This document shows, piece by piece, positions 19,649 to 48,429 of a stretch of 64,000 bases of DNA. The stretch comes from an uncultured virus (IMG/VR IMGVR_UViG_3300025769_011517) (Duplodnaviria; Heunggongvirae; Uroviricota; Caudoviricetes), in the IMG/VR virus record IMGVR_UViG_3300025769_011517, one strand, 5' to 3'. The notes beneath the pieces are model-generated. The model searched no databases, was not told where the DNA came from, and saw nothing but the letters and a program-made list of their open reading frames with translations. The position numbers were made by a program, and so were the translations under genes. The stretch's first letter is position 1. The number at the start of each line of letters is the position of its first letter.

Positions 19649-19654
19649 GAACAT

Positions 19655-19683
19655 ATTATACCCGCCCCTTTGGCGGAAGTCAA
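19655..19683 (-). promoter_or_regulatory. Sigma-A-type promoter, probably leaderless
   Basis: TTGACT-17 nt-TATAAT-6 nt-ATG(19648). Confidence 0.8.
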
Positions 19684-19684
19684 A

Positions 19685-21640: not shown

Positions 21641-21784
21641 CTTATGTCCTCCTATGGCTGTGAACGTGTGTATAAAAATAATGGTTTTACTATTGTAGCC
21701 ACCCACAATGAACTACAATCGTCAAGTCATTGTGAGAGTTGCAAAAATCTTGCTAGATCATGCTACCATGAACGTGGCAGCATG

Positions 21785-22612: not shown

Positions 22613-23899
22613 TCAGCTCGGTTCGGCGTCGAAGGTGACCTTCACAAACGCCTCGGGACGCTTGACAGCGAGGGCAAGACGCTCTTCAGCAAGCACCACG
22701 ATGGCGTTGCGGACGAAGAAGTCTGAGTGCTGTTCCGAAATACGGATTGAAGCAGCCTCACGGTCGTACAGCTGAGCGCCAGTACCGAACGCACCGACAA
22801 GAGCGGTACCCTCAGCGATGGCCGGAGTGTCAATGACGGGGATACGCCAGACACGTGACTCAGCGCCACCAGCAACTGACATGGCAAGAAGGTACGTGCC
22901 CTGTGAGTTCTTGGTAAGCTCAATGTCTTCCCAGTCTGACGGGTGGACGATGATGCCGGTCGGCTCGTAGTAGGCAAGGTATGCCAGAGTAGCCGCACGA
23001 CGGAGAGCATCGGCCTTGGTGTCAGCAACAGGTGAAGTTGCGCCATCAGACCATGCGTAGGTCTGGATGTCAGTGGTGTTGAGAATACCAGTAAGGTCCT
23101 CACCAGTGCCAGCACCGGAAAGAATCTGGGCATCCTCGGTCAGACGAAGACCGTAAAGAAGCTCGTTGTCGATGATTGAACGCAGCTGCGGCTCATCGGC
23201 AAGAACGTTACGGTGAGCGGCTTCCCAGTGAGCAATCGTCCGCACCGGAGCCTGCTCACCAACGAAGGTCATCGTTGACTGAGGCTTGGCACCGAAGTTG
23301 CCTGACGAGTACTCAGGAACAACTGAAGCGTTGTTCGTGAAGCCGGTCTGACGGAAGTACTCAACAACCGCTGAGTTGGTGGTACGTGCCGGGAAAAGGT
23401 CACGCACACGGCTACGACGCTGAGCAATCGGGACGATACCGTCACGCTCAATAGCGCCGAAAGCGTCAGGAGTGCCAGTAGGAAGACCTGAGTAAAGGTC
23501 CTTCTGCTGAAGCGACTTGGCCATGAACGGAGAGGTCATGTTTACGCCAGCCTTGCCACCCTGAAGTGACTTGAACTCCTCTGAGTTAAGGAACGCATCA
23601 CCGACTGAACGGTGACGAGAAACCTCTGACTCAACGCCAGCAGCAACCTCAGCAGCAACTGACTTGTACTCGGCCTCTGAAGACCAAGCGGACACGTCAC
23701 GAAGAGTGCTCATGTCCTCAATAAGACCCTTGATCTCACGAATCTGGGTCATGTTATTCTGGAATGCTGACTTCTTTTCGTCATCAGCGATGAGGGTTGT
23801 GCCCTCAAATTGCATCGAATCAGCGATCTGCTTCTGCTCATCCATCTTTTGGGTAAGAGCAGACTTCAGCTCGTTGAGTCGGCTTTCATCAAAACTCAT
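22613..23899 (-). CDS. Major capsid protein (HK97 fold, N-terminal delta domain)
   Basis: RVRDLFP..VEYFRQTGF..AKPQS..VRTIAHW..LADEPQLRSIIDNELLYGL..FVRNAIVVLAEERLALAVKRPEAF; AAGGAG RBS. Confidence 0.95.
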   Translation of the reverse strand: MSFDESRLNELKSALTQKMDEQKQIADSMQFEGTTLIADDEKKSAFQNNMTQIREIKGLIEDMSTLRDVSAWSSEAEYKSVAAEVAAGVESEVSRHRSVGDAFLNSEEFKSLQGGKAGVNMTSPFMAKSLQQKDLYSGLPTGTPDAFGAIERDGIVPIAQRRSRVRDLFPARTTNSAVVEYFRQTGFTNNASVVPEYSSGNFGAKPQSTMTFVGEQAPVRTIAHWEAAHRNVLADEPQLRSIIDNELLYGLRLTEDAQILSGAGTGEDLTGILNTTDIQTYAWSDGATSPVADTKADALRRAATLAYLAYYEPTGIIVHPSDWEDIELTKNSQGTYLLAMSVAGGAESRVWRIPVIDTPAIAEGTALVGAFGTGAQLYDREAASIRISEQHSDFFVRNAIVVLAEERLALAVKRPEAFVKVTFDAEPS

Positions 23900-24087: not shown

Positions 24088-25602
24088 CTACTTGCGAGTA
24101 GACCGTGGATGACCTTTAGGAAGCAAGTCGTTGTCGGTTGTATACTTCGGATTTGATGGTTTTCCGCTAGACGTTAACTTAAGAAACGCATTGACACGGC
24201 CCATAGCCCATTGCTGCCGCCCCATCTTCGGGCGATGAGTCTGCGAAAACGCTCCAGCGCCTCTTCGCCACACAGCTTTTAACATGCCGAGCGTAACTTT
24301 ACGGCTATCTTTATTCCGTTTCGTCATCTTCTCGTTGTGAGTCTTAACCTTTTCTTTCAAAGACTTTTCAACCGCAGCCGAAAGTTTAATCCCCCCACGA
24401 GTATTTGCAGCAGTACCCGGCTTGTTTCGACGTGAACCGCTAATACGTTCAGACGGTTTAGCAGGAGTCTTCGGATCATTCGGCCCATACTTTCTAGCAG
24501 CCTTCTCACGAACTTTCCAATTATCTGGAATCAACTCAGTCCTACCCAAAGCACGGGCACGTTTCATAATGTGACGCTTAGCGGCCTCTCTATCTTTACC
24601 TAAACCGTAAGCTTGGATAGCGTTCCGCAAATCACCAACATCTCTAATCGGATACGACCCGTCAGGAAGCGCCCAACCCCGCTTAGCGTACTCTTCCCGA
24701 CGCTTCTGCGTATAGAACCGCTTTTCCTCAATAGTGTCAAACGTCGTCTTCTCGCCGCCCTCTACACGACGAACAATAGCCTTCGCCCAAGTATAACCGG
24801 CATCGCCACCCCACAAAGCCCAAGCAATGCGCCCATTAGAAGGAAACCCCTTCTCGCCCGGACGGTAACCCCCAGCTTTTGAATCGCTCTGATGACGATC
24901 AAAATAAGCCTTAACCCGCTTCACAGTACGATACGGCAAGTTCTTCCCGTTCGCAATATCACGAGCACGAGCAACACCAACCATAGTGCCGCCACGACCA
25001 AACTCTTTACGCCACTCCAAACCCTTCTTAGCCTCCGACACCATACCAGCAGTCGGCTTAAAAGAATCCGAAACACCTGCCTTGCCAGAAACAAGCCCGC
25101 CACCGGGAAGAGTTTCAATACCACGTGGGCCACGCTCACGCAGATTCTCCCACCTACGCTCATTAGTTACAGTTCTGCGGGCAGGCCGCTGAGCACGAAT
25201 AACTCTCGCAGACCCATTGCCGCCGTTACCTTGGGCAGCATTACGCTCTTCAGGTGTAGCACAAGGTGCCCACTTGCCTTGAGCAGTTTGATGCGCCCCA
25301 AAACAACCTAACTTGACAGCAGCCTGCTCCGCTTCAGCCCGAGAAGAAAACACGCTCTTTCCTTTAGCGGCTTTCAACCGCAGCATTTCTTTACTGCCAG
25401 TTTTCTTTCCCTGCCGTTCTTTCCATTCACGAAAAGCAGGATTACCTAGCTTGATAAGCTGCTGCAAATCTTCAGCGGACTCGCAAGGACCCCAAGCGTC
25501 ATCACCGACTTTGTGAGCACCCGTACAGCCTAAAATGTCGGATAGGTTTTCCGCCATTTCTTTCGTGGGTACTGTCTGTCCTTCTAAAGGGTCCTTAGCC
25601 AT
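24088..25602 (-). CDS. Basic multi-module head protein (two GCxGxH..PC modules, GRIAWALWGG module, LPDGSYPI module, DUF5824-like C-terminus)
   Basis: Motifs visible in translation; C-terminal LKAVWRRGAGAFSQTHRP..QQWAMGRVNAF; start MAKDP at 25602 overlaps upstream stop. Confidence 0.65.
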   Translation of the reverse strand: MAKDPLEGQTVPTKEMAENLSDILGCTGAHKVGDDAWGPCESAEDLQQLIKLGNPAFREWKERQGKKTGSKEMLRLKAAKGKSVFSSRAEAEQAAVKLGCFGAHQTAQGKWAPCATPEERNAAQGNGGNGSARVIRAQRPARRTVTNERRWENLRERGPRGIETLPGGGLVSGKAGVSDSFKPTAGMVSEAKKGLEWRKEFGRGGTMVGVARARDIANGKNLPYRTVKRVKAYFDRHQSDSKAGGYRPGEKGFPSNGRIAWALWGGDAGYTWAKAIVRRVEGGEKTTFDTIEEKRFYTQKRREEYAKRGWALPDGSYPIRDVGDLRNAIQAYGLGKDREAAKRHIMKRARALGRTELIPDNWKVREKAARKYGPNDPKTPAKPSERISGSRRNKPGTAANTRGGIKLSAAVEKSLKEKVKTHNEKMTKRNKDSRKVTLGMLKAVWRRGAGAFSQTHRPKMGRQQWAMGRVNAFLKLTSSGKPSNPKYTTDNDLLPKGHPRSTRK

Positions 25603-26212
25603 CAGCCTCAGCCTCCGGCTCAATTGCCTCAAAAGTAACACCTATAGCATCAGGAGAAACAAACTTCGCTAATTTCAAAACTTCTTTAATCGAAGAGTTG
25701 TCGTTAGTAATCTCAGCATCTTTCAACAACGTATACAACGCATGAATATCTTCTCTAACTTCTTCGTCTTCTCTGTCCTCTTCATCAATAGCCATAAACC
25801 CTGATTCACTACTAGCATACAACACCTGCCACAACTCGTTAAGTTGCTTATAGTTCACTAGTTTCGGCATTCTAGCAGGAGCCGTGGAGATATAAGTTTT
25901 TAAGTCTTCTAAAGACATAGCTTCAAGCTCAGCAACATTATCATCATAATCAGCGTTAAACTGCTCAACTTTTTTGCGAGCATCTTCAAACTTAGCTGAA
26001 TCTACTTCAATAGCATCTGGAAAACGTCGCTTAATTCTTGTGGGCGTATACATGTCAGTATCAGGCTCACGGGTAGCCCGAATACTCATCTCTAGTTCAA
26101 GTTCGGCTGCCTCTTCTTCAAAGCCACGCTTAACAAAAAACTCTACAGAGTTAAGACTAGAAACGGTAAGCAGCATCGTAGCGTTTTTCGTTAAAATGTA
26201 GTGTTTAATCAT
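25595..26212 (-). CDS. Hypothetical acidic protein
   Basis: 205-aa ORF coupled (ATGA overlap) to upstream gene. Confidence 0.65.
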   Translation of the reverse strand: MIKHYILTKNATMLLTVSSLNSVEFFVKRGFEEEAAELELEMSIRATREPDTDMYTPTRIKRRFPDAIEVDSAKFEDARKKVEQFNADYDDNVAELEAMSLEDLKTYISTAPARMPKLVNYKQLNELWQVLYASSESGFMAIDEEDREDEEVREDIHALYTLLKDAEITNDNSSIKEVLKLAKFVSPDAIGVTFEAIEPEAEADG

Positions 26213-26445
26213 GTTGCTGCACCACCTTTAGGCTTATCTCGAATTTCTCTAATACTTGTGTATGAGAACCCTGATCGTGTGAGTTGTCTTACAGTCCTAG
26301 CTTGCCCGCCATCAGATTCAATTAAAAAATCTATAAACTCTTTAAACTTCGGGTTATCTACATTTTCCGCAACAAGGCCGTCAGGTGTTTCAGTAACAGT
26401 CCCTTCAAGAGTGTTGTCTAAGTCATAAAATCCAAATTTTTTCAT
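26209..26445 (-). CDS. Small hypothetical protein
   Basis: 78-aa ORF with TAGACT-6 nt-ATG. Confidence 0.65.
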   Translation of the reverse strand: MKKFGFYDLDNTLEGTVTETPDGLVAENVDNPKFKEFIDFLIESDGGQARTVRQLTRSGFSYTSIREIRDKPKGGAAT

Positions 26446-26501: not shown

Positions 26502-29500
26502 CTAAAGTCCAACGTTACTCTGGCGTTGAGGCATACCTCTGTAATTGCCAAACAAAACTAGGTCCATAAGTTCTTCTCCGGTATAATCTGTTTCCATTAA
26601 CCAGCCGTACCGTTCTAAGAACATCTCCTGAGATCGCTTCCACCCATCGCTATCAAGGTTACCGTGCGCACCAACAATATCGCCAATTACCTTTTCCATA
26701 TCTTCCGCACTCTGAGCCGCCCGCAATCTTTCAAGGGCACGATCAAACGATGCCGCAACAGCGGCCCGATCAGATGCTGAAGCAGCTGCAAGTTGACTAT
26801 AAAGATCGCCACTTAAACGGGGACCTCTGCTATTAGCGGCACGAGCAGCAAATTGTTCTTCAGGGCTAAGTCTTACGAGGTCACCCGTCCGTGGATCACG
26901 GTACTCAACCCCAAAGAAGTCATTATCAGTCCCATCTTCTCCGTCACGGCCACCCAAAGTCAGGCCCATGTCAATAGGAACAAGTCTAACATTTCCGTCA
27001 CGATCCGTGTACTGAAGCCAGTTGCTACCATGCCTATCACTGTTAAACAACAAAGCGTCACCCAGCATCATGTGAGTTGCATCGTCTAGAGTGTTCTCAT
27101 TAGAGAAATCATACTGTCCCGGGTTCCGTCTACCTATCATAATATCGGTAGCGCCTTCAGGAAGGTAATTCTGCAAAGCCTCACCCATCAAGCCACGAGC
27201 GGGGTTAATAGCAGGATCATCCCACGGGTCTCGGTTAGCAGCGTTTGGATTTGCAGGCCCATCTAACCTCATCTGCCCTTGAACAAAGCCCAGACGAATC
27301 ATCAACGCACGGCCAACTAGTTCGTTACCGTCTTCGTCACGACCATATGAACGCCCATCATTAAACTTAATCATAAATATCTGACCAGTAGCAGTATCTA
27401 CTATAAGCTGCGCACCATTTATTGCATTACCTCTGTTATTGACACCCCCACCGTCATCCATGCCCATCCCAGGAACCAACATTTCAAACCTTGCATTTGG
27501 TTCACGGTCGTCACGTCGCAAGACACGGTTTTGTTCATCACGAATCGCTTGCCCATGTCTATACCCTGAACCGTTCTGACCGTACAAACGATCAACTACT
27601 CCCACAAGCCGCTGTAAGTCATTATCAGACAAACGAGTAACATCAAAAGGCAAATCATCCAAAGACTCTTCAACCAACTCTTCAAGCATCTCATTTGAAT
27701 ACTGACCTAAACGGTCTTCTCCAATATCAGACACCGCCAGAACCACAGGATTAAGGAACTCATCAGGAACACCAGAAACATCATTATTACCATCTCTCAT
27801 CCACTCAGCACCTTGATCAACAGACTCAATACCATTCGCCCCCACAGGAACCGCTGGAAGCGGACGCTGCTCGCCCCTATCAAAGTTCGGGTCTAATTTC
27901 TGATTCGGTCTGGCGTCGCTCTGACGAGGAGGAGGAGTAGGTCCTGAAGGTACCGAAGGAATCGAAGGAATCGACGGCTCTGGAGGACGATCATAAGGAT
28001 CAATCAAATCAGGTGTTACCTGACGTGGATCGCCGTCAGCATCACTCAAAATATCTGTAATATCCCAAGTACCGTCACTGAACGTGGTGCCCCTAAACGG
28101 GTTGGGAAGCGTCAAACCTGCTAGCTCAGGGTCATCAGCAAGCAACTGATCAACCATATCTCCATCTAAAGCACCAATATTGTTAGCGGGGTCGTCACCG
28201 ACGTTTCTACCGATGTAAACTCCACCGCCTCTAAACATCTGGAACGCAACAGAGTTTCTAATACCCTCGCCTTCCAACGCCAACATGAAATCATGCATGT
28301 CTGGCAGTTCATTAATTTCTCTAGCATCCATGGAAGCCAGCACCCGTACTGGGTCATCAACGTTCAATAAAGGCTCAACCATAGCCTCAATACGTTCAGC
28401 CCTCACATCATCCTGAATAAGAGCCTTTGCGGCACGCTGCTTCAACGTAGGTTCAATACCTGTACGTTTCGCTTCTTTATAGCCATTGTAATCTTTCAAA
28501 ACCTCAACCATACCCTCGTTAAGGTTCCTAATATGGTTAGGATTATCATCTCTAAACCCAATGCGAGGCCAAACAACCCGGCCATCATCAACAGCACCAA
28601 CCTTAACTTTGCTAACACCCATATTTCTATAGAACAACAAGTTGTTGTTAAACATCTCTTCAGTGAAACCGCCACCGGCAAACGAAATGTCTTGTCCCTC
28701 AAACTGTATAACACGGCTCGTACCTAACAAATTATGCTTAACCTTACCGTCACCTTGCGCATCCCAAGTGATGGTACGAGACATTCTGCCTAGCCGGAAC
28801 CCTCCATCGTTTTCGGAATAAGTTTCTTCAGCAACAACATTACCATCAGAATCTAATAGTTGGAATTTCATACTAGACTGAACATCAATCTGCAGAATAT
28901 CTCCACGAGGGCCGTCACGAGAAATGAAAACACCATCGCCACGGCCATCAGTCGTGGGAATAATCTGCTTCGTGTACGTCTTACCATTAATCTCTACAGA
29001 CCCAACCTGAACCGGCTGATCCGTATCCAACAAGAACGCATCTCTGATTCGTGATTCAACTTGCGCATCAGTCATCGCACTCAGGCCATCACGCCCGCCA
29101 ATATCCCACGGCTGCGTTTCCCTATCACCATAACGACGCTCAGCAATGTCTTTAATCTTCTGCTCACGCTTCTGCTGACGCTGCCGTCTAGCTTTGAGGA
29201 AGTTCCATCTACCCACCTTACGCCATCTATCAGACAACTGCGGCTTGTTATCAACAGCGTCTCCAAGATTCGCCCGAGCCGACGCAACCGCACGACCATC
29301 AAGAAGCTCCTCACGTAAAGTAAGAAGACCATTTTCGTCTATGATGTTTGGGTCCATGTTGTCAAGACGTTCTTGAACATACTCTAAATGACGATCAATA
29401 GCCTCAACTGACCTTTCATTCAGAGGAAGGTTTCTTTCAAAACTTCTATCTCCTCTGATCCGCATTGCACGGTTCCAAGATCGCATCAGATCATCTTTCT

Positions 29501-32500
29501 GACTGTCAGAAAGATTCGTGCTGTTTAGAATGCGTTCTCTATACCGCAACATTTCATTAGTTGAAGCTTCTGCCAGCATAAGTTCGTTTCTCAGCATAGC
29601 TTTCGCACCGGGTATCTTATCAGCATTCATATTATCTTCAAACATTGCGTCTCTAAGTCTCACCCTTACAGCGGCATCGCCCTGCCGAGGCTGATCCACA
29701 AGGTCAGGAGTAACACTACCCAGGTTCCTAAGTCTTCTAGCTTCTACCTCACTCTGAAGTCTATTAATCAAAGCATCTAATTCATCAACATCTCTACCCA
29801 GCGTGTCAAGACCCCAAGCTTTGCTGTTTTGTAAGTGCTCTATGTGTGCTTCCAAAGCTTCATCGGAACGATCCTGCAAATCTCTGTCCAACTGGAAACG
29901 GTTAATGTTTCCACGCCTAGCACGCTCACGGTCCATAGCGTCACTTAAGTAGTCAAAATACCGTTGAACATCATCTTCAGAAAGGCCATTAGCGTCACGC
30001 TGAGCCGCAAAAGCCAATAACGAACCATACTCACGTTCGAAACGCCCAAACTCTTCAGGAGACATATTTTCTAAGTACCCCTGTAATCTCACGCCCGCAG
30101 GATCAGCATCTGCTGCATCAATAACAGCATCAAACCGCTCACGGCTAGTCATTCCTTCCGTAAACTCGAAAGGACCCCCTGAAGGAATGCCGCCTCTGTC
30201 AGCATCAGCACGACGCTGATCAGCAGCACGCAACCGGTCAGCCTGCTCTGCAGCCGCTCTAGACGGAGGACGGCCCGCATTGCCTGCACGCAAACGGGCT
30301 TGCCGGAGTGCACGATCACGAGGACTCATATCATCCAGCATCGCATCATCCATGTTCGCCATGCGTCGTGCCAGATCATCCACATCGCCGTCGTTAATAT
30401 TTAACAAATCAGCATATCTGGCTTTTAATGCTGCTCTTAAGCTAGGATCAACGACTTCGCCAGCGCCGACTCTAGCGTCAAACATGTCTAACAAGTCTCC
30501 AGCAGAATACAAATCAAGATCAGAAAGGAAGCGATCTGGGTCAGCGTCATACCTATTAAGCGCATCATCATAATCAGGATCAACCCGGTTAAATATAATA
30601 TCAACCTCTGGTTCGTCAACTACCCGATTAGCTGAAGGGGCACCATCAACAAGGAACTCAAAGTCTGGATCAATTCGAGAAAGAGCCGCATCTGGGTTAT
30701 CACGCAAATTCATAATACCTTCACGGCGATTTAGGGCAAGATATGGCAGATACTCTTTCAAAACATCTAAATCACGAGCCGCACGAGCAGCAGTATCATT
30801 TGCATCAAAACTTTCTTCTTCACGAACAAACCGTAGACCATCAACCATTTGGTTCAACTCACGGAACGCTTGAAGTCGTAACGTAAGTAGGCGAGCACCG
30901 GCCTGAGGGAAGTCCTCCTCCTCTATCCTCCTACGAACTGCCGCTTCAAGATCAGCAACATTCCAACCATCCTGAAGAGGACCAACCTCATTGAGAATCA
31001 ATTGCAGAACTTCTTGATGCTCACGAACAGCCGCACCCGCCACGTTATCAATCTGCTCAGGAGTCAGATTATCAAGCTCAGGCATGTTTACAGGGTCTCT
31101 CCGGCCCTGAGTATTAAAGCCTGGGTCATTTCTGTATTCCGGCAGACGCTGCGGCCTGTTAGACGCAGACCCAGGAACATTCACACCTAAACGATTCGGG
31201 TCTCTTGTACCATCCTCAAGAGCATTATACTCGGCTCTGATCGCTCGCCAGTTGCGCAGATTGCCAGCGTTTATGTTTTCTCTCGCCATCTCGCCGGTAA
31301 TATTATCCAGACGAACCAAGTCATCATCAGAAATACGTTGAAGATTGAAAGGAAAATCATCGCCAGCCTCAATCAACGCCCTAAGCTCATCATCACTAAA
31401 CCGATCAAGAACATCAGGATCATTCGGATCAGGCGGCTCCGGCGCACCACCGGCACCAGCATTAGGATCAGTAGGATCACTAGGACGAAGACGACGATTA
31501 ACCTCACGGCCACGATCATTCAAATTGCCATCAGCATCATAGTAACCACCAAAACGCCTATCCAACTCAGCAGCATCAGTACCGTTATAATCATCATCAC
31601 GCCAATAAGCACGACCCGGCAAACCATTACGTGGGAACCTATTATTTACATTCCGCAACGAACGGCTATCAGGGTCAGATCGGGACCCCGGATCAAAAGC
31701 AGCCTGCTGCAGTCTACGACGATCACGCTCCGCCGCAAGACGGCCAATAAGTTCCTCAAGGTCTTCTAACCCCTCACGGCCTTCAGCTGCGTAAAGGTCC
31801 GATAGCCGCAGATGAGCATTAAAGAAAACGTCAAGTTCGTCATCACTCAAAGTCTCTAACATGTTTTGAGTCATGCCGCCGCCAGAAACCTTAAAGTCTG
31901 CAGCCCGCTTCTCGAACTCGGCAATAACCGCAAACAAATCAGCGTTTTCGTCTAGATCAAACTTATCCTTAATGTTGTTTTCTTCCGACTCAATACGAGG
32001 ACGCTTACCTGGGCCTTGGAAACGACGATCAAACTCGTTATCCATACGCTTCAGCAACTCTTGCAAGTTTCCGATTTCATCAGCCGGAACCGCATTAGCA
32101 TCTATAGCATCACGGACAGCACGCCGATACTTAATCAAATCATCATCAGAAATAGCATTAAAGAAGTCAAGAGTCATGCCGCCGCCAGCAACCCTGTAAC
32201 GCTCCATATGCGCTTCCATCTCAGCAAGGACCCGTTGATAATCTTCAGGTTTAATCTCTGAGGCAGGCACCTTGTTTAGGCGGTCACGACGATCTCGTTC
32301 ATCCGCTAAGCGGGCAGCAATCTTCATAAACGCATTATCACGCTGCGCTACCTCAGGGAACTGAATAATCGCTTGATCAAATACGTCTTGGAAGAAAGCG
32401 ACTTCGTCGTCATTAAGAAGTTGAATGAATTCTACAGTCATAGCGTCTCTAGCGTTATATTCCTCAGCTAGATCATAAAAATGCTGAATTGCTTCCGCCA

Positions 32501-35500
32501 TGCCCTCTTCAGTTTCAAGATCAAAACGATCTCGCAAGTTAGCATTAACAAGACTACGGCTTCTGTTGCGGCGATCTCTTTCAGCCCGTAAACGCTCCAA
32601 AGCCGCACGAATATCATCAAACTGTGGGTTGTCAGCCATAGCCTCAGCAGCAGTTTCAAACGCATTGATGTATTTATCTAAATCGTCATCATCTAGTGAC
32701 TCAACAAAATCTAGGGTTCTGCCGCCACCAGAAACTCTGTATTCTTCAGCCCGCTCACGGAACTCTTGAAGAATTCGTGCAAACTCGTCCATTATTTTTT
32801 CAGGATCGTCAGCATCATCAGCAGGGGTATAAGTTATTGTCTGAGGATTATACGGGTCAATATTTCTACGGCGAAGCTCAGCGTTGATTTCACGAAGCCT
32901 ACGTCTATCCATTTCTTCGTCACGCTGACCCGGAATGAGAAGCCCCGGGCTACCATGCCGTAATCTGAAGAATTCTCTAACTAGCTCTCCATCAGTCATC
33001 TCCCCAACAGGTTTGGGCTGAAGCGCCTCTGGAATATCATCAGGATCAGGAGTGCGGCCATCAGGAGTACGACCATCAGGAGCACGACTATCAGGACCAT
33101 CACCCGGCACACCCGGCGCTCTAGGACGACGAGGACCGCCACCACCAGGGCCACCCGGCACACCCTCATCACCCGGAACAACATCCCGATCACGACGACC
33201 AGCACGCTCACGCTCAAAGTCTTCATTCCAAAGACCCAAGAAACGCAAAATCAACTCTCTCAAGAAACCAAGAATACCATCCTGCCGACTCCGCTGCTCA
33301 GGAGTACGAGGAGGATTATCAGACAAGCGACCAGCCTCAGTATTCGCAGCCTTCTCAACAGCCTTATACGCCTTACGAATCTCATCCAAATTAGCGTTAG
33401 CCAAATCCTGATCATTCATAACATCACGAAGATTCTTAAGCGCCGCCTCCAAAGCCTCACCCTCAAGCAACTGACGCTCTTCAGGAGTCAAATCAACATC
33501 ACGCTGAGCCTCACCAAGCGTGCGACCCAACTTACCGCCTTCAACACCCTCAGTCTTCTCAAACACCCTACCCAAATCACCAGTAGCAGCATCAAGAGTA
33601 CGAATAGCATCATCAAGCTTCTCCGCCGTCTCAGGCTTCAAATTGCTTCGACCATCACCCGGACTCGTGTCCAACCGGCGACGACGCCGCCTCTCCATAG
33701 CGTCTTCAAGACGAGTACCCAAATCAACAAGGTTATTAACAATCTGACGTGGAAGAGAATAACCACAGTTGCTAGCAAACTGATTAGAGAACCGACCGCC
33801 ATAACGAGTGCCAGGAGGACAACGATATCTACCCAAGTTACCATCAAACACCGCACGGCTACGGCCACCAACAGCACGACCACCACGCCCGATCCGGCGA
33901 CCCAAACCACGACCTCTAGGAGCCTTAAAATCAATCTCAGTCAAAGACGTAAACGCTTCAATCTTACTATTGACAGACATGTGATAGTACTTTGCATCAA
34001 GCACATCAGTAAAGTCAGTAGCAACCGGTGCTGACTTCTGAGAGAAAGCAAACGGTGAACCACTCTTCTCTTCCGCACCTTCCTCAGCAACAATCTCATA
34101 AATCGGAGCATCTTTTGCACGACGTGGCGCAGAACGAGACAAGAACGTTTCATAAACCCAACGAGGCACTGTTTCAGTCTTGCCGCCAGCCGTAGAGACC
34201 TTAATCAAATCGTTCTTGCCCTCAGCGATCGCAAAGCCGGTCTCGGTCACTTCACCAAACTCAACAGTAAACCGGCCATCAGAACCGTCAGCCCACGCAC
34301 GAACAGCAGCAGAAGGATCAGGCAAATCAGCGCTTCGGCTTATGCCAGTAGCAAACGAACGAAGAAGCCCTGCCCGTTCCGCATCAGAAATTTCTCCCCC
34401 AACACGACTGATTTTAACAGCGCCAGCATCAGGGATAGAAACAAACACGTTACGCAAATTCGTGCTAAACGCAGGAACAGTAGAAGCACCAATCTGACCT
34501 GCCTCATATCTTTCAATAAGGCTACCGTCAGCCATGTCATCAAACTCGTTAAGTTTACCAAGCGCTTCAACTGAAACAACAGGTTCTAAAATGACACCAT
34601 CACGGCGAACAACTTTAGTTGGGAAATCTTCTTGCTCATAACGTGTCAACACCAAATCAATAGATGTTTCTGCCCGGGTCGGGCTACCTTTCTTCGGGGC
34701 AGCCGGAATCTGAGCTGCACGAATAATATCTACAGCACTGTCGTTGTTGCGAAGATCACCAATTTCATTAACTAAACCTGCAGTGTTCGCCAAACGAGAA
34801 AGTCTATTGTTTGCCTCGGGGGTGGGCGAACCCGGACCCGAAGTAGCAATCCCCAAAATCTGGGCACCACACGTCGAAAACTCGGAGTTAGTGAACGTAC
34901 CACCCTTCTCAAAGCCTGGAGGACAACGGAACTTATTACGAGCACCACGACCTCTGCTTCGCAGGATACGACCACCACGAGCATTAGGAATATTCGGAAC
35001 GCCAGGAGTCAGCGTTTCATAAATCTGAGAACGGATAGGGCTACGAATATCAGACAAATCGCCCGGAAGAATAATACTGCCCGCAGCCTGCGCAGCCTGA
35101 CCCAAACGGCTAGAAGAACCAAACACACCAACACGCTTAACCTCGTTACCAGCAAACAAAGGCAGCCGCTCCGAATGCTGCAAGAACATCGCAGCCTTCA
35201 TCTCCACAGCATTCTTACGACCAGCAATAGGCTGAACAAGAATACCACCAAACTCACGAGACTCACGAATCGTCATACGCAACGAAGTAACTTCAGTTAA
35301 CGGTGAAATACCAGTCAAAGACTTCTTGCCCGCAGACCGAACACGACGAGTCACCGAACGACCACGACGCTTCCGCTTACCCTTACCTCTACCACGCTTA
35401 CCCTTGCCCTCGTTGGGCCACTTGCCAGTCAACTCGTGGTGAAGCCAAGCACAAATACGCTGAGGCTTACCACCAAACTGCGGCTTATCCATAAGGATAA

Positions 35501-35657
35501 CAACACAACGACGGAAGCCACCCGGCTTCTTCATAATCGGACGCCAATACTTGAGAAGGTCCTCAAGATTGCCACGACGAGGACCACGCCCTCGTGTAAG
35601 GCTGGTCAAAGCATCGGCGTTTGGCCCAATCTCAGGTGCTTTAAACTCAATCGTCAT
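26502..35657 (-). CDS. Giant (3051 aa) polyvalent head-module protein with GNAT-like and C-terminal HipA/PI3K-like kinase domains
   Basis: Two RCPPG..GG.F....CG motifs; helical repeats; GGGF..YRNMGVSKVKVGAVDDGRVVWPRIGF; IFMIK..ELVG..DALLFNSDRHGSNW..PIDMG. Confidence 0.7.
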   Translation of the reverse strand: MTIEFKAPEIGPNADALTSLTRGRGPRRGNLEDLLKYWRPIMKKPGGFRRCVVILMDKPQFGGKPQRICAWLHHELTGKWPNEGKGKRGRGKGKRKRRGRSVTRRVRSAGKKSLTGISPLTEVTSLRMTIRESREFGGILVQPIAGRKNAVEMKAAMFLQHSERLPLFAGNEVKRVGVFGSSSRLGQAAQAAGSIILPGDLSDIRSPIRSQIYETLTPGVPNIPNARGGRILRSRGRGARNKFRCPPGFEKGGTFTNSEFSTCGAQILGIATSGPGSPTPEANNRLSRLANTAGLVNEIGDLRNNDSAVDIIRAAQIPAAPKKGSPTRAETSIDLVLTRYEQEDFPTKVVRRDGVILEPVVSVEALGKLNEFDDMADGSLIERYEAGQIGASTVPAFSTNLRNVFVSIPDAGAVKISRVGGEISDAERAGLLRSFATGISRSADLPDPSAAVRAWADGSDGRFTVEFGEVTETGFAIAEGKNDLIKVSTAGGKTETVPRWVYETFLSRSAPRRAKDAPIYEIVAEEGAEEKSGSPFAFSQKSAPVATDFTDVLDAKYYHMSVNSKIEAFTSLTEIDFKAPRGRGLGRRIGRGGRAVGGRSRAVFDGNLGRYRCPPGTRYGGRFSNQFASNCGYSLPRQIVNNLVDLGTRLEDAMERRRRRRLDTSPGDGRSNLKPETAEKLDDAIRTLDAATGDLGRVFEKTEGVEGGKLGRTLGEAQRDVDLTPEERQLLEGEALEAALKNLRDVMNDQDLANANLDEIRKAYKAVEKAANTEAGRLSDNPPRTPEQRSRQDGILGFLRELILRFLGLWNEDFERERAGRRDRDVVPGDEGVPGGPGGGGPRRPRAPGVPGDGPDSRAPDGRTPDGRTPDPDDIPEALQPKPVGEMTDGELVREFFRLRHGSPGLLIPGQRDEEMDRRRLREINAELRRRNIDPYNPQTITYTPADDADDPEKIMDEFARILQEFRERAEEYRVSGGGRTLDFVESLDDDDLDKYINAFETAAEAMADNPQFDDIRAALERLRAERDRRNRSRSLVNANLRDRFDLETEEGMAEAIQHFYDLAEEYNARDAMTVEFIQLLNDDEVAFFQDVFDQAIIQFPEVAQRDNAFMKIAARLADERDRRDRLNKVPASEIKPEDYQRVLAEMEAHMERYRVAGGGMTLDFFNAISDDDLIKYRRAVRDAIDANAVPADEIGNLQELLKRMDNEFDRRFQGPGKRPRIESEENNIKDKFDLDENADLFAVIAEFEKRAADFKVSGGGMTQNMLETLSDDELDVFFNAHLRLSDLYAAEGREGLEDLEELIGRLAAERDRRRLQQAAFDPGSRSDPDSRSLRNVNNRFPRNGLPGRAYWRDDDYNGTDAAELDRRFGGYYDADGNLNDRGREVNRRLRPSDPTDPNAGAGGAPEPPDPNDPDVLDRFSDDELRALIEAGDDFPFNLQRISDDDLVRLDNITGEMARENINAGNLRNWRAIRAEYNALEDGTRDPNRLGVNVPGSASNRPQRLPEYRNDPGFNTQGRRDPVNMPELDNLTPEQIDNVAGAAVREHQEVLQLILNEVGPLQDGWNVADLEAAVRRRIEEEDFPQAGARLLTLRLQAFRELNQMVDGLRFVREEESFDANDTAARAARDLDVLKEYLPYLALNRREGIMNLRDNPDAALSRIDPDFEFLVDGAPSANRVVDEPEVDIIFNRVDPDYDDALNRYDADPDRFLSDLDLYSAGDLLDMFDARVGAGEVVDPSLRAALKARYADLLNINDGDVDDLARRMANMDDAMLDDMSPRDRALRQARLRAGNAGRPPSRAAAEQADRLRAADQRRADADRGGIPSGGPFEFTEGMTSRERFDAVIDAADADPAGVRLQGYLENMSPEEFGRFEREYGSLLAFAAQRDANGLSEDDVQRYFDYLSDAMDRERARRGNINRFQLDRDLQDRSDEALEAHIEHLQNSKAWGLDTLGRDVDELDALINRLQSEVEARRLRNLGSVTPDLVDQPRQGDAAVRVRLRDAMFEDNMNADKIPGAKAMLRNELMLAEASTNEMLRYRERILNSTNLSDSQKDDLMRSWNRAMRIRGDRSFERNLPLNERSVEAIDRHLEYVQERLDNMDPNIIDENGLLTLREELLDGRAVASARANLGDAVDNKPQLSDRWRKVGRWNFLKARRQRQQKREQKIKDIAERRYGDRETQPWDIGGRDGLSAMTDAQVESRIRDAFLLDTDQPVQVGSVEINGKTYTKQIIPTTDGRGDGVFISRDGPRGDILQIDVQSSMKFQLLDSDGNVVAEETYSENDGGFRLGRMSRTITWDAQGDGKVKHNLLGTSRVIQFEGQDISFAGGGFTEEMFNNNLLFYRNMGVSKVKVGAVDDGRVVWPRIGFRDDNPNHIRNLNEGMVEVLKDYNGYKEAKRTGIEPTLKQRAAKALIQDDVRAERIEAMVEPLLNVDDPVRVLASMDAREINELPDMHDFMLALEGEGIRNSVAFQMFRGGGVYIGRNVGDDPANNIGALDGDMVDQLLADDPELAGLTLPNPFRGTTFSDGTWDITDILSDADGDPRQVTPDLIDPYDRPPEPSIPSIPSVPSGPTPPPRQSDARPNQKLDPNFDRGEQRPLPAVPVGANGIESVDQGAEWMRDGNNDVSGVPDEFLNPVVLAVSDIGEDRLGQYSNEMLEELVEESLDDLPFDVTRLSDNDLQRLVGVVDRLYGQNGSGYRHGQAIRDEQNRVLRRDDREPNARFEMLVPGMGMDDGGGVNNRGNAINGAQLIVDTATGQIFMIKFNDGRSYGRDEDGNELVGRALMIRLGFVQGQMRLDGPANPNAANRDPWDDPAINPARGLMGEALQNYLPEGATDIMIGRRNPGQYDFSNENTLDDATHMMLGDALLFNSDRHGSNWLQYTDRDGNVRLVPIDMGLTLGGRDGEDGTDNDFFGVEYRDPRTGDLVRLSPEEQFAARAANSRGPRLSGDLYSQLAAASASDRAAVAASFDRALERLRAAQSAEDMEKVIGDIVGAHGNLDSDGWKRSQEMFLERYGWLMETDYTGEELMDLVLFGNYRGMPQRQSNVGL

Positions 35658-35826
35658 CCGAATCCCCAGCGGTTTCTAAGGGACTAAAGACATGCTCTAA
35701 TCCATCTCTGTACAGGTATTCTACCTCGTTATCTCTAACGTGGTCGCCAAGAACAGCATATGCTCCTAATTCTGCTAAAGTTTGATTAGCAGCAGCAATC
35801 CTTTGCGTTACTTGGCTAGGCTGCAT
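35647..35826 (-). CDS. Small hypothetical protein, 59 aa (not in ORF track)
   Basis: GGAGG RBS; MQPSQVTQRIAAANQTLAELGAYAVLGDHVRDNEVEYLYRDGLEHVFSPLETAGDSDDD*; overlaps giant gene start. Confidence 0.65.
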   Translation of the reverse strand: MQPSQVTQRIAAANQTLAELGAYAVLGDHVRDNEVEYLYRDGLEHVFSPLETAGDSDDD

Positions 35827-35847: not shown

Positions 35848-37674
35848 TCAGATAGAATCGTCTTCCAACAGGCTGTTGAACTCTTCCATCGCCTTAAGAA
35901 TATCTTCGTCTAGCACCTTCTCTTCAGCATCAGCATCAGGGGCTGCAGGAGCAGGCGAGCCGCCGCTAGCAAAATCAGCCGGAATCATATCTTCCAACTT
36001 CAGTTCCTTAGCACGCTTCATAATGTGCGCCTTAGCAGCTTCTTGATCAGCCGCACGACCCACCGCTTGGATAGCGTTGCTTAGGTCAGCCTCATCAGCA
36101 ATCGGGAACGAACCATCAGGCAGAGCCTCACCGGACTCAGCCATCGCCTCACGCTGCTCACGAGAGTACATCCGCTTGATCTCAAGTTCAGCCTCAATAG
36201 CCTTAATCTCTTCCTCTTCAGAAAGCTCATATGAACCCTCAGCGTCATAATCGTACTCATCATAGCCGAGCACCTTGCCATCAGCAGCAACGAACACGTC
36301 GTAGCTCTTCTCTTCAGCATCAAGCTCAACCACGTACACATCTTCATCTGCGAAGATGTCAACAGTAACGCTCATGACCTCAGCCTTGATTCCCATCTCG
36401 CTAATAGCGTCACGTGCCGTAGCCTCAGCATCAGACTTAGAAACAATCTCAATAGCTTCAGCGGACTTGCCTTCAATAGCGCTCTGATCCAAACGCAGCC
36501 AACCAAGCTCCTCGCCGTCGCCGGTCAGGAACACTTCAATAAAGGAACCGTCAGCCCGCTTGACATCGACAACGAATACGTCGTCACCGGCTGAGTAGCC
36601 TGAGCCAATAATTTCAGAACCCTCGTAGGCTGACTTGACCTGACTTTCAATGTCAGCAAGCCCTGGAAGGCCATCTTCAGGAGCACAGCCGCCTGTGCAG
36701 AACTCGCAAGGCTGCTCAACTGACTTGCGCTGGAAACCACAGAGGAACTCTTCTTCTGACTTCATCATGCCACCAGGGGCAGCAGCCGGAGCAGGAGCAG
36801 GAGCAGGAGCAGGCGCAGCCGGAGCGGGGGCAGGGGCCGGAGTAGGAGCCGGTGCCTCAGCAGGCTTGCTAAGCTTCATCCAATCATCGTGGGTTGCACA
36901 AGGCATGTACTTTTCACCTGCACGATGAACGCCCTGGCAACCTAGCGCCGCCGCACGCTCAAGAGCTTCAGCTTCCGAATCAAACATGTCTTCCATGCCG
37001 TCTTCAGCCTTTTCATCCATACCCTGACCCTTACGCATTGCTGTCAACTCAAGGGGGCTGCGACGACGATAGCGCCGACCATAACCCTTGCCGGTGCCCT
37101 CTTCATAAACATCAACAGCCTCAAATGCTTCTTTAGCGTCTTCGTCTAAAACGTCATAGTCTTCTGATGAAACAAGCTCGCCAGCGTCCATCATTTCCTT
37201 GAAACGACTATCGGTAAGGAACATTGAAGGCTTTTCATCATCAGGGGCACGCATCTGCGACATGAGTGCAGCGGCCTTTTCTGAGATAGGATCAGCATCT
37301 GACTTTTCTTCCACGGATTCTTCAACCGCATCTTCAACGACCTCTTCAACAATGTCTTCAGCATCGTCCTCATCATCTTCATCAGACTTAAAACGGAACA
37401 CCCAGCCCATAGGCTCCTTGCTCTTCTCGTCCATGACCTGAACCATCTCATAGCCCTTCTGCTCATCAGCATCAAGAGACATGAAAGCTTCTTCGCTAAG
37501 CAAATCGCCAACTTCCATTGACTCCTTGAAACGAATGTCAGTCATAAACACAGACGGTGCGTTTTTCTTCATATCATGCATAGCCTTCTCTGCGGCAGAC
37601 ATGCTTTCCCCAGAATCGATGACTTCGCTCAAAGCTTCCATCTTCTGAAGGTCTTCATTAAGGTTATCACTCAT
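35848..37674 (-). CDS. Acidic multi-module head protein (internal repeat, GCxGxH..PC module, Cys cluster, PepSY-like domains, LPDGSFPI module)
   Basis: PSVFMTDIRFKE/PSMFLTDSRFKE repeat; CGFQRK..CEFCTGGC; SKSDAEATA..VYVVEL..YDVFVAADGKVL. Confidence 0.65.
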   Translation of the reverse strand: MSDNLNEDLQKMEALSEVIDSGESMSAAEKAMHDMKKNAPSVFMTDIRFKESMEVGDLLSEEAFMSLDADEQKGYEMVQVMDEKSKEPMGWVFRFKSDEDDEDDAEDIVEEVVEDAVEESVEEKSDADPISEKAAALMSQMRAPDDEKPSMFLTDSRFKEMMDAGELVSSEDYDVLDEDAKEAFEAVDVYEEGTGKGYGRRYRRRSPLELTAMRKGQGMDEKAEDGMEDMFDSEAEALERAAALGCQGVHRAGEKYMPCATHDDWMKLSKPAEAPAPTPAPAPAPAAPAPAPAPAPAAAPGGMMKSEEEFLCGFQRKSVEQPCEFCTGGCAPEDGLPGLADIESQVKSAYEGSEIIGSGYSAGDDVFVVDVKRADGSFIEVFLTGDGEELGWLRLDQSAIEGKSAEAIEIVSKSDAEATARDAISEMGIKAEVMSVTVDIFADEDVYVVELDAEEKSYDVFVAADGKVLGYDEYDYDAEGSYELSEEEEIKAIEAELEIKRMYSREQREAMAESGEALPDGSFPIADEADLSNAIQAVGRAADQEAAKAHIMKRAKELKLEDMIPADFASGGSPAPAAPDADAEEKVLDEDILKAMEEFNSLLEDDSI

Positions 37675-37704: not shown

Positions 37705-39267
37705 TTACTGAACACCCTCGGTGGTGTCAATCGGTCTTGTTACTGTTACCTCAGGCTCAAACGCTAATCCCGCAAGCGACACAGCGACTTTTTCCATCAG
37801 TTCTTCTTCTGCAAGTTCTGTCGTAAAGTGGACATCAACGCCATCTTCTGACTTAAACGAGAACACAGGCAGGCCAGACATAGCGCCGTTAACAGCCAGT
37901 GCTTCTTTCTCTGAACACTTGACATGGACAACAAAGCCTGAAGTCACCTTCTCGCCCTGCTCGCCAGGACGAGACATCGGGGCTTCAGTCAAGAAGTCTT
38001 CGACCGCACCGATCAAAGTCAACGTGGCCTCACGCAACTCACCGGCACCACGAAGCTTCAGCATCTCATTGTAAGCCATAAGTAGCAGAGCCATGGGGTC
38101 CTTAAGATACTCAGGCTTCTTGCTAGGCATCATATGGCCCTTTTCTTCGGTCCCACAAGAACACCCTGCAGCCTTTGCTTCTTCAACCTCAACCCCAGCA
38201 AGGTAGTTGTTATGCGAGTTGATGTTAGCGTTACCATCAAACTTTTTAAGTGCTTCTAAATACTCTTCATGCGTTTCACACGGCATGTAACCGCCGCCAT
38301 GTGAGTGATAACCAGAACAACCAAAGGTCTTAGCCCAAGCAAGAGCAATATCCGGGGTAGCCCACGAACCCTGCTCATCATCAGCATCTCTCACGCCCGC
38401 AGGCTCTTCAGCATTCTTTTCGTCAGTATCTTTAATCATCATTGAAGGGGGTGCCTCCTCCCCTACCGGGGTGTAGCTTGTTGTGGGCTTTACACGTGTA
38501 GGCCGACCAACCTGAACCTGACCATTTTCAACAGAAATCGTGGCGCTCCATGTCATGTCTTCGCCTGTTTGGAATACAACGTTATTTCCATCCATTTCAA
38601 TAATCTGAACGGGCTTACGCAAAGCCTGAGACAGCATTCGCCCCAAACGCTCTGACATTGCATCCATAGTACTAGCAGGGCCGTCTTTATCTTCATCCTC
38701 AACGTAATAGCCTTTGGATGCCTTGCCCTTTTCATCATCTTTAACAGAAATCGTTGCGGTCAACTGATTCGCTCCATGCAGAACAGGAGAAATTTCGTAC
38801 AACTCTACCTCTTTGAGAATGTTAGCTTGCTTAACTGCATCAAAATCTGCAGTAATTGTCTTGTAACCAATTGACCACTCTTGCTCATTGCCGTAAAATG
38901 CAACATTTGCAAACGCTTCACGACCACGTTCAGTATTAAGGTTGAACTGAACCTTAGCAAACAAGCCACCAACTCCAGCCTGCTTCATCTTTTCAGGCAG
39001 GCGTGGATCAGTCTTAGGGACTTCGTAAATCTCTAGAACTTTACCAATTGGCTGATTCCAATCGTGGCCCCAAACAACCCGTGGTTTGCGTCGCTTCAGA
39101 GACCCGTTAAACGCACCTGCGATAACGATGTCGCCAACAGAATCTTTATTTCCAATACCTGACACAAACGCTTCAACGATGCCTTGAGCCTTGTCGATAC
39201 CAATCTGGCCTGAAATAGCCTTGAATTGGGTGTCGTGCTCGGTGTCATTTAGTTCTGCAACAGTCAT
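37705..39267 (-). CDS. HK97-family prohead protease with long C-terminal extension
   Basis: GIVEAFVSGIGNKDSVGD..GAF..WGHDWNQPIG..WSIGY..LKEVELYEISPVLHGAN. Confidence 0.92.
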   Translation of the reverse strand: MTVAELNDTEHDTQFKAISGQIGIDKAQGIVEAFVSGIGNKDSVGDIVIAGAFNGSLKRRKPRVVWGHDWNQPIGKVLEIYEVPKTDPRLPEKMKQAGVGGLFAKVQFNLNTERGREAFANVAFYGNEQEWSIGYKTITADFDAVKQANILKEVELYEISPVLHGANQLTATISVKDDEKGKASKGYYVEDEDKDGPASTMDAMSERLGRMLSQALRKPVQIIEMDGNNVVFQTGEDMTWSATISVENGQVQVGRPTRVKPTTSYTPVGEEAPPSMMIKDTDEKNAEEPAGVRDADDEQGSWATPDIALAWAKTFGCSGYHSHGGGYMPCETHEEYLEALKKFDGNANINSHNNYLAGVEVEEAKAAGCSCGTEEKGHMMPSKKPEYLKDPMALLLMAYNEMLKLRGAGELREATLTLIGAVEDFLTEAPMSRPGEQGEKVTSGFVVHVKCSEKEALAVNGAMSGLPVFSFKSEDGVDVHFTTELAEEELMEKVAVSLAGLAFEPEVTVTRPIDTTEGVQ

Positions 39268-39358: not shown

Positions 39359-40189
39359 CTACCTGCTGAAGCGCAGAATACAACGACAATTGATCGTCAA
39401 ACCGGGCGGAGCCAAAGGGTCTTTCGGGAATCGAATAGATACACCATTCACAAAAAACGGCGTACCAACAGCAACTTTTTCACCATGTAACTGCCTATGA
39501 GCAGACCTAACCCGCTCATCCATTAAAGACACCCACTGTTTTTGTACAATTTGACCCGTTCTTTGCTCTTCCGCAACTGCAGAATCATACAAGCCTTGAT
39601 TGTACGGACCCAAAACAGCAGCGTCAACAATCAACTTTCGACGCTTTGTTCGGAGTTTATTGAAAATAGCTTTTATCAAAGAATAGGCTAAAGCAATCTT
39701 TAAAGCGATATCAACGTCGCCATCATTCTCATCAGTCAATTGTGCAGCAGTAACTAAAGCAGCCGCAACTTCTTCTTGCGTGGTTGTGTTAAAATTATTG
39801 ACTGCTGCTAAATGTTCAGATGTCGCTGCTTCTGACACTTGCTCAGAGACAGGAGCGCCATATCCTTCTTCAATATTGTCTTCAACCGCTTTACGATACG
39901 TGGCTGCCATAGAAGCTAACAACGCAACAGTTGACGGTGTAAGTAACGCCACAGGAATTGCAGACAGAATTAAAGCAACAGAGCCACTAGCAATTGCAGC
40001 TTGTACAGCATCGCTATCTAACTCATCTAGAACAGCCTGCTCTTGATCGTCAAAAACTTTATCAAGTTCTGAGTTTAGTCTGTCTTCTAAAGAGCTGACT
40101 GTGTATAAAGTTTTAGTCTTCCAGTCGGAAGCGTTTAAGAGAGAAGGTCCTCCAGCAGCGCCAGTCTTCGTTCTAAAGGGAGACTCTTC
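39359..40189 (-). CDS. MuF/SPP1-gp7-like minor head protein, probably made as a -1 frameshift fusion to the portal
   Basis: KQWVSLMDERVRSAHRQLHGE..RFPKDP..TINCRC MuF motif; frame open to 40189 with no ATG/GTG/TTG for about 79 codons above 39952. Confidence 0.8.
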   Translation of the reverse strand, partial: EESPFRTKTGAAGGPSLLNASDWKTKTLYTVSSLEDRLNSELDKVFDDQEQAVLDELDSDAVQAAIASGSVALILSAIPVALLTPSTVALLASMAATYRKAVEDNIEEGYGAPVSEQVSEAATSEHLAAVNNFNTTTQEEVAAALVTAAQLTDENDGDVDIALKIALAYSLIKAIFNKLRTKRRKLIVDAAVLGPYNQGLYDSAVAEEQRTGQIVQKQWVSLMDERVRSAHRQLHGEKVAVGTPFFVNGVSIRFPKDPLAPPGLTINCRCILRFSR

Positions 40190-41933: not shown

Positions 41934-41974
41934 AGGTATACTTTACCGTGAAAACCTCTAGGAGACAAGCAGAT

Positions 41975-45094: not shown

Positions 45095-45103
45095 GTAAGT
45101 ACC

Positions 45104-46276: not shown

Positions 46277-46278
46277 AC

Positions 46279-47678: not shown

Positions 47679-47687
47679 ATTATCTCC

Positions 47688-48038: not shown

Positions 48039-48047
48039 AACTGTATT

Positions 48048-48428: not shown

Positions 48429-48429
48429 G

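Follow-up and report, generated by a model that had tools for sequence, protein, structure and literature searches.

Packaged effectors are an established theme in myoviruses, in the excerpted parts of the accounts drawn on here (PMC9503650, PMC7824862). As excerpted, PMC5512222 describes polyvalent proteins as exceeding 2000 amino acids (aa), encoded among packaging genes, joining unrelated protein-modifying enzymes in one chain and presumed to be injected; MuF toxins, in the corresponding portion of PMC5576092, are products of head-module genes with a variable C-terminal enzyme and an open reading frame (ORF) of small size directly downstream; and the T4 internal proteins and Alt, in the portion of PMC9026906 used, carry a short conserved leader ending in a protease site before diverse payloads. 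Here we describe a giant head-operon gene in a 64,000-nucleotide stretch of DNA (the window, meaning the whole stretch analyzed) from an uncultured virus, IMG/VR record IMGVR_UViG_3300025769_011517. Like polyvalent proteins, its product is very large, encoded among packaging genes and endowed with two disparate enzyme domains in one chain, a GNAT-family domain and an atypical kinase; as in MuF toxins, a variable C-terminal enzyme is followed directly by a small gene, here encoding 78 aa; and, as in T4, conserved leaders end in candidate protease sites. We put a probability of roughly 0.65 on the reading that this protein is internal head cargo, loaded through its leader and trimmed by the S78 protease, that enters with the DNA and modifies host targets, and that the 78-aa protein keeps the kinase in check.

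The 9.2-kb ORF reported by the first-pass annotation is real: the same 3051-aa frame recurs in the independent contigs L001, L004, and G001, with one substitution relative to L001. All motifs named in that annotation were found in place (RRC at 35513, RICAWLHH at 35459, RCPPG at 34928 and 33824, DRHGSN at 27038, and PIDMG at 26978); GGFTE lies at 28673 and WPRIGF at 28571. To these we add a tandem two-unit design, a lysine motif ahead of each RCPxG module, and a cassette of the kinase and the 78-aa gene. The giant protein belongs to an uncultured myophage family; the window phage is assigned as a myovirus because a tail sheath gene is present. Searches matched 55 viral loci with the first 640 aa as the query and 2 with the kinase alone. 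Among 62 long homologues (1763 to 4807 aa), 31 carry both GNAT and kinase, 17 the kinase without GNAT, 13 GNAT without the kinase, and 1 has neither, and NUDIX, helix-turn-helix (HTH), poly(A) polymerase, and 2H domains occur as extra payloads in other homologues. In 45 of 47 loci the protease gene is found upstream, and the capsid gene is downstream in at least 22 of 47, a count bounded by contig extent.

What distinguishes the family is a constant front end joined to exchangeable enzymes. The N-terminal ∼800 aa are conserved, while the payload varies. With domain borders drawn by local profiles (hidden Markov models [HMMs]), the constant unit I consists of N1, an RCPxG module, and N2, and unit II, which bears the enzymes, consists of a second RCPxG module, N3, and acidic repeats; in each unit, a short leader that closes with E/D-x-K leads into a basic stretch and then the RCPxG module. 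The two units are separate genes in L013 to L016 (568 and at least 3393 aa in L013). All six cysteines of the protein fall within N1 (RRC..RICAWLHH) and the two RCPxG modules, an Arg/Gly-rich stretch (aa 579 to 660; isoelectric point [pI], 11.9) surrounds the second of these modules, and about 750 acidic residues without a domain call lie between the RFPR module and the GNAT-containing domain. N1 is shared with head-region proteins of cultured actinophages (GMA2 orf11, E = 2e-5) and is fused to the S78 protease in L053 to L055. N2 is modeled with a predicted local distance difference test (pLDDT) score of mostly 79 to 91 across aa 321 to 520; it has no named family and no clear fold match when searched within longer N-terminal models, and because it was not folded alone, the result does not argue for a new fold. 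The N-terminal 815 aa gave no Foldseek match at E ≤ 0.001, with generic helical bundles only for aa 667 to 815; Atlas scores were ≤0.80 for N2 and 0.89 for the GNAT region; the N-terminal profile had no significant match among PDB sequences; and no part of the giant protein matched NCBIfam. In L011 (10001 to 11638), a 545-aa form corresponds to unit I alone, followed directly by a DUF3721 gene in a head operon without payload.

The exchange of enzymes is clearest against L003, a phage ∼95% identical to the window elsewhere. From the protease to the 517-aa gene, DNA identity per 300 bp is 83 to 99% outside two stretches, a Pro/Gly linker (68 to 78%) and a block at ∼27925 to 26190 (53 to 66%) that holds the kinase and the 78-aa gene; at 50-bp resolution, identity is 34 to 76% inside this cassette and 92 to 100% immediately on either side. 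The encoded proteins follow suit, with 48% identity for the kinase and 37% for the 78-aa protein versus 91% for GNAT and 97% for the next gene. Across the family, 11 of the 21 pairs whose N2 domains are ≥97% identical share ≤36% in both GNAT and kinase, although the 21 pairs are not independent. The expectation that homologues keep the N terminus and swap C-terminal domains is thus borne out, and a constant N terminus with an exchangeable C-terminal enzyme is also a feature of polymorphic toxins. The 78-aa protein family comprises 6 proteins, and its profile has no significant match among PDB sequences. The sequence pattern of the kinase and 78-aa block fits an enzyme-partner cassette. One lineage (L024 to L029, L033) instead combines NUDIX, kinase, and an uncharacterized ∼600-aa C-terminal domain in a Lys-rich payload, with three small downstream genes of a different set. 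We also considered lysine avoidance in the payload (1.9% Lys here and mostly 1.6 to 3% in GNAT-and-kinase relatives) but rejected it as a general property because the NUDIX lineage has 6.4 to 7.9%.

The RCPxG module also occurs outside the giant protein. Its profile matches at least 541 proteins (among 8000 scored; 120 listed), and neither Pfam nor PHROGs supplies a name for it. Several separate head-operon genes of L054 and L055 each start with RCPxG. Among 301 proteins, all 109 stand-alone carriers (RCPxG without N1 or N2) have it inside the first 250 aa, and 85 of the 109 bear GNAT and/or kinase, a share biased by carriers having been gathered partly through the GNAT search. These stand-alone carriers display one conserved leader ahead of unrelated payloads, as T4-type propeptides do. 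Upstream of the module is a two-lysine leader ending in [YI]-E-V-K, followed by R-x-R-A. After setting aside 8 sites too close to the protein start, an E-x-K motif precedes RCPxG at 58 of 78 dereplicated sites (33/48 and 25/30), compared with about 6.5 expected after shuffling the same windows (3.5 and 3.0). In the giant protein, lysines are retained in most aligned rows (K6, 26/26; K154, 26/26; K174, 23/26; K531, 26/28; K578, 17/19). By analogy, leader, E-x-K, and RCPxG resemble a capsid-targeting propeptide, and the front end of the giant protein is probably a head-loading tag. We advance more tentatively, as something short of an even chance, the broader proposal that leader, E-x-K, and RCPxG form an undescribed, portable HK97-type loading tag that is widespread in aquatic actinophages and serves proteins of up to ∼4800 aa, with the kinase as an exchangeable enzyme-inhibitor cassette. 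If true, it would amount to a polymorphic effector-immunity system whose delivery starts within the virion and does not involve MuF. Apart from MuF fusions, little is known about the uptake of large internal cargo by HK97-type heads, and reporters offer a direct test of a short transferable tag.

Structural modeling (mean pLDDT, 78) and profile comparison both support the kinase fold that had been predicted, and we regard the domain as an atypical kinase. Its extent differs from the earlier ∼26520 to 27480: the domain starts near 27905, where the structural match begins (model residue ∼419). The label "HipA-like" is not supported as a specific assignment. HipA (Z = 11.4) ranks seventh, behind CotH (14.0), PI4K-IIa (13.2 to 13.4), CtkA (12.6), and actin-fragmin kinase (11.9) and ahead of MavQ (10.8); in a 22-row profile search, actin-fragmin kinase is best (E = 3e-5), Fam20, CtkA, and PI4K-II are also matched, and HipA reaches E = 0.9. 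Because no fold relative stands clear of the others, we assign neither a specific substrate class nor a HipA label. Sub-cutoff matches include Pfam PI3_PI4_kinase (E = 0.0013) and, in seven relatives, HipA_2 (E = 0.002 to 0.04); in PADLOC there were weak kinase matches only (PDC-M03A, E = 0.001 to 0.04). The domain does share with HipA an atypical kinase fold with catalytic Lys, catalytic Asp, and Mg-binding Asp (K2764, D2874, N2879, D2896). No HipB-type HTH antitoxin was found beside it: the 59-, 78-, and 205-aa neighbors have no match in NCBIfam, PADLOC, or PHROGs, and a Pfam scan, which of the three covered the 205-aa ORF alone, gave no HTH match. Of 53 kinase domains, 50 retain the full catalytic pattern, and kinase fold relatives occur fused to portal, MuF, and ART. 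In L031 (14760 to 17333) and L040 (14706 to 17768), a separate gene encodes a kinase without catalytic motifs, whose C-terminal domain looks by eye like that of the window's 955-aa protein.

GNAT kinship is supported through relatives. The first-pass annotation had a GNAT-like segment at ∼28560 to 28690; the kinship stands, although there is no direct Pfam match and the domain is far longer (Table 1). A 15-row profile matched 429 representatives, of which 53 were scanned in Pfam and 8 matched GNAT models at E ≤ 0.01, and the profile aligns to P0169 (probability 92, E = 7e-7) over that protein's above-cutoff Acetyltransf_1 stretch. Through this match, motif A (the acetyl-coenzyme A loop) and motif B can be placed on the strand-helix core typical of GNATs. 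G2359 and W2363 are invariant in 199 of 199 rows, and in some relatives the domain is joined to MuF, minor capsid, or PemK domains. Against the PDB, the GNAT matches were weak (E = 0.03 to 0.4) and without significance, with secondary structure consistent with a GNAT core; no direct fold match was obtained because kinases filled the match lists of the two-domain GNAT-and-kinase model. A pairing of GNAT with the 205-aa gene seemed plausible from presence and absence but was rejected because identities diverge within the L031 lineage (39 to 65% for GNAT versus 88 to 96% for the 205-aa protein).

Our proposed mechanism builds on architecture, folds, synteny, and exchange as observed, from which we infer packaging, cleavage, injection, substrates, and partner binding. 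The leader and RCPxG module would bring the giant protein into the prohead, where the S78 protease would cut after K174 and K578 to release a ∼277-kDa unit II whose basic new N terminus could bind DNA, so that the cargo would enter the host with the DNA. There, GNAT would acetylate and the kinase phosphorylate targets, most likely proteins, aiding takeover or blunting defense. Payloads would be swapped between phages by recombination, and the 78-aa protein, traveling with the kinase, would probably bind and restrain it during late-infection synthesis. The speed with which GNAT and kinase alleles are exchanged suggests unrecognized host targets among aquatic Actinomycetota that have not been cultured, and the window and L003 alleles offer a natural cognate/noncognate test of the small partner gene.

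Several observations weigh against this proposal. The family is known from genes alone, with no cultured phage matching the N terminus or kinase, and a protein of 277 to 340 kDa must unfold for tail passage. The payload is dispensable in L011, since that phage keeps unit I only. The lysine motif was defined on these same sequences and may reflect common descent; other N1 lysines are as conserved as the leader lysines, and the motif is modestly enriched in the window's head genes in general (23 of 269 Lys versus 18 of 378). Linkage alone could produce coexchange of the kinase and 78-aa gene, as neighboring genes cotransfer anyway; the kinase correlates with the 205-aa gene no less than with the 78-aa gene (Spearman coefficients over all pairs, 0.85 versus 0.77); and in the L030-to-L044 lineage the 78-aa gene persists next to a kinase whose catalytic motifs are lost. 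Finally, of the three proteins listed in GMA6 virions, none is head-region cargo, in a shallow data set from which the portal is missing too (PMC4524720).

Some of these points suit a protein of head assembly, with unit I as a scaffold or internal part and enzymes that act on virion proteins of the phage itself or work late in the infected cell rather than being injected. Unit I without payload in L011, N1 fused to the protease in other phages, and CotH as the best fold match are all in keeping with this; the substrates of CotH, a kinase of the spore coat, are structural proteins. We nevertheless judge it unlikely: structural neighbors are 91 to 99% conserved, whereas the enzyme domains are exchanged or ∼30% identical, and such exchange is not what one would expect of enzymes with fixed self-substrates. 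That same exchange could instead mark a polymorphic toxin-immunity pair, in which cells that lack the matching 78-aa immunity protein would be arrested by the injected kinase, or rival phages excluded from them. Here a variable C-terminal enzyme is followed by an ORF of <150 aa and exchanged with it, which is the MuF toxin layout in the excerpt of PMC5576092, and the weak matches to PADLOC PDC-M03A kinases point the same way; such a system needs lysogens, however, and no integrase appeared in Pfam among the 55 window ORFs (G001 is 61% complete, and no dedicated search was made), which leaves it quite unlikely.

A lipid target has also to be weighed. Actinobacteria contain phosphatidylinositol, and the kinase could phosphorylate this lipid, either in the actinobacterial membrane or in a protist that grazes on the infected cell. 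The fold scores of PI4K-IIa and MavQ and the best Pfam match, PI3_PI4_kinase, are compatible with this, and a "Trojan horse" role has been proposed for freshwater-phage ARTs (PMC6802176). Protein kinases score equally, however (CotH, CtkA, and actin-fragmin kinase, the last also the best profile match), a lipid substrate would leave the fast exchange unexplained, and no translocation domain was detected, so that we consider a lipid kinase very improbable. Head cargo acting on host proteins remains the reading we prefer.

Cultured phages inform the loading and cleavage steps of that reading. The nearest cultured capsids are those of Chidiebere and GMA6 (Gordonia) and Cantare (Brevibacterium), at 45 to 47% identity. 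The HK97 capsid is cleaved after Lys. In phage D3, cleavage is confirmed, with the residue not given in the excerpt of the source (PMC12749128). The 12 capsid peptides listed for GMA6 virions begin at D151, immediately behind an E-Q-K, and no listed peptide derives from the part upstream (PMC4524720); the corresponding position in the window capsid is QQK|D134, and Lys is not proven as the GMA6 cleavage site because the peptides look tryptic. GMA2 orf10 was found in virions, its 18 peptides beginning around residue 140 (PMC4524720); it is a head-region protein with a weak 2H match, and its N-terminal module differs from that of the giant protein. Like the window with its N1, the head regions of Chidiebere, GMA6, and Cantare encode N1-type modules, together with ART, 2H, or HNH proteins. 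Unlike the giant protein, the Gordonia/Brevibacterium cargo starts, by eye, with another basic module, and profiles of RCPxG, N2, GNAT, and kinase had no match in the head-region cargo of Chidiebere, GMA6, GMA2, and Cantare. ART, HNH, and 2H proteins at L058 (7731 to 11734), L059 (8660 to 12801), L060 (7662 to 10784), and L250 (7981 to 14263) share this basic N-terminal module, which judging from sequence is possibly a second loading tag, one that can be tested in culture.

More broadly, cultured phages gave no match to the giant N terminus or kinase and only E ≥ 0.06 matches to the GNAT core, in Aeromonas phages; no relative was found in the genome_contigs database. We found no literature description of the protein family in searches that did not use the RCPxG motif as a query term and whose scope did not extend to the FTP supplements of Iyer 2017, which could hold the RCPxG module. 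The host is probably an aquatic actinobacterium of the Acidimicrobiia, as judged from the phage's RecA sequence: 10 of the best 11 cellular RecA matches listed are Acidimicrobiia, including Aquihabitans, which we take to belong to that class. The window RecA (56906 to 57880, plus strand) is full length and 66 to 71% identical to Acidimicrobiia RecA.

The head operon runs from portal through short MuF protein, S78 protease, 608-aa, 59-aa, giant, 78-aa, 205-aa, and 517-aa genes to the major capsid protein (Table 1). The first-pass placement of the giant gene between the prohead protease and major capsid genes is correct as to order, but it adjoins neither: the 608- and 59-aa genes separate it from the protease, and ORFs of 78, 205, 517, and 51 aa intervene before the capsid gene. 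DUF3721 recurs in three head-operon proteins (the 517- and 608-aa proteins and the protease); the first two have, by eye, a further short module in common, which recurs at the end of the GMA6 protease. The terminase large subunit gene (41948 to 43291, plus strand) is divergent from the portal gene. A B12-type ribonucleotide reductase and a peroxiredoxin-like gene (19136 to 21706, minus strand) lie between capsid and neck genes, and a second multidomain protein of 955 aa (12180 to 15047, minus strand; phrog_2579, E = 4e-36) is encoded among neck and tail genes; its middle part is ART-like by eye without a Pfam match, and its C terminus is a weak DUF7178. A ParB_N, PAPS-reductase-like, and methyltransferase cluster, PhyH and glycosyltransferase genes, and a LicD-cytidylyltransferase pair (44573 to 50883 and 54504 to 55444) are possibly involved in DNA or surface modification. 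Promoter and terminator counts in the window were at chance level.

Table 1. Features of the giant gene and its head operon, in window coordinates
Feature	Position	Strand	Remarks
HK97-type major capsid protein	22613..23899	-	
517-aa basic head-operon protein	24088..25641	-	DUF3721 x2, phrog_2859, DUF5824
205-aa ORF	25595..26212	-	in GNAT+kinase loci; not in NUDIX lineage or L011
Exchanged cassette, kinase + 78-aa gene, relative to L003	26190..27925	.	1.7 kb
78-aa ORF, candidate kinase partner or inhibitor	26209..26445	-	replaced with kinase; follows kinase genes
Giant head-operon protein, candidate cargo	26502..35657	-	3051 aa, 340 kDa, pI 4.9
Atypical kinase domain, aa 2585-3040	26538..27905	-	K2764, E2779, D2874-R-H-x-x-N2879, D2896
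GNAT-family domain with helical extension, aa 2170-2527	28077..29150	-	motif A 28650-28676
Four ~80-aa acidic repeats, aa 956-1320, and mobile RFPR module, aa 1320-1395	31473..32792	-	local HMMs
N3 helical bundle, aa 640-813	33219..33740	-	generic helical-bundle matches only
RCPxG module 2, aa 606-637	33747..33842	-	unit II start
K578, candidate protease site DFK|A ahead of unit II	33924..33926	-	kept in 17/19 rows; cleavage inferred
N2 alpha/beta domain, aa 270-544	34026..34850	-	most conserved folded domain
RCPxG module 1, aa 238-269	34851..34946	-	C245, C263 invariant in 29 rows
Unit I leader, K154 and K174, candidate protease site EVK|R	35136..35198	-	cleavage inferred
N1 helical module, aa 20-102	35352..35600	-	C51, C69, H73, H74; phrog_6439 (E 4e-8)
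59-aa ORF	35647..35826	-	directly upstream of giant gene; kept in most loci
608-aa acidic head-operon protein	35848..37674	-	DUF3721
S78 prohead protease	37705..39267	-	DUF3721 extension
Short stand-alone MuF protein	39359..39952	-	197 aa
Portal	40135..41775	-	

Set against known systems, the claim that this is a polyvalent protein stands for size, location, and the joining of kinase and GNAT in one chain and fails for the kinase, which is not of the Iyer 2017 clade. In that clade the C-terminal subdomain is lost and an insert separates His and Asp, as excerpted from PMC5512222, whereas our kinase has a modeled helical C-lobe, aligned to model residue ∼870, and a contiguous DRHxxN. Polyvalent proteins are also said, in the same excerpt, not to follow the constant-N, variable-C layout seen here, and Pfam detects no MPTase, ART, MuF, or other family in the giant protein, the weak kinase match excepted. 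With CotH, PI4K-II, CtkA, actin-fragmin kinase, Fam20, and HipA, the kinase shares a fold (Z = 10 to 14 over 224 to 251 residues; root mean square deviation, 4 to 5 Å) and the DRHxxN and PxD motifs, at 10 to 15% identity. The T4 parallel differs in that the capsid is HK97-type with an S78 protease, the candidate site follows Lys rather than Glu, and a conserved folded module would remain on the mature side. Compared with MuF toxins, the giant protein lacks a MuF domain, MuF being a separate gene, and two or more enzymes share a chain. It is therefore not a MuF toxin, though laid out like one, and is not supported as a HipA toxin; what is new in it is a portable RCPxG module without a name and a cassette of kinase and small gene that can be exchanged.

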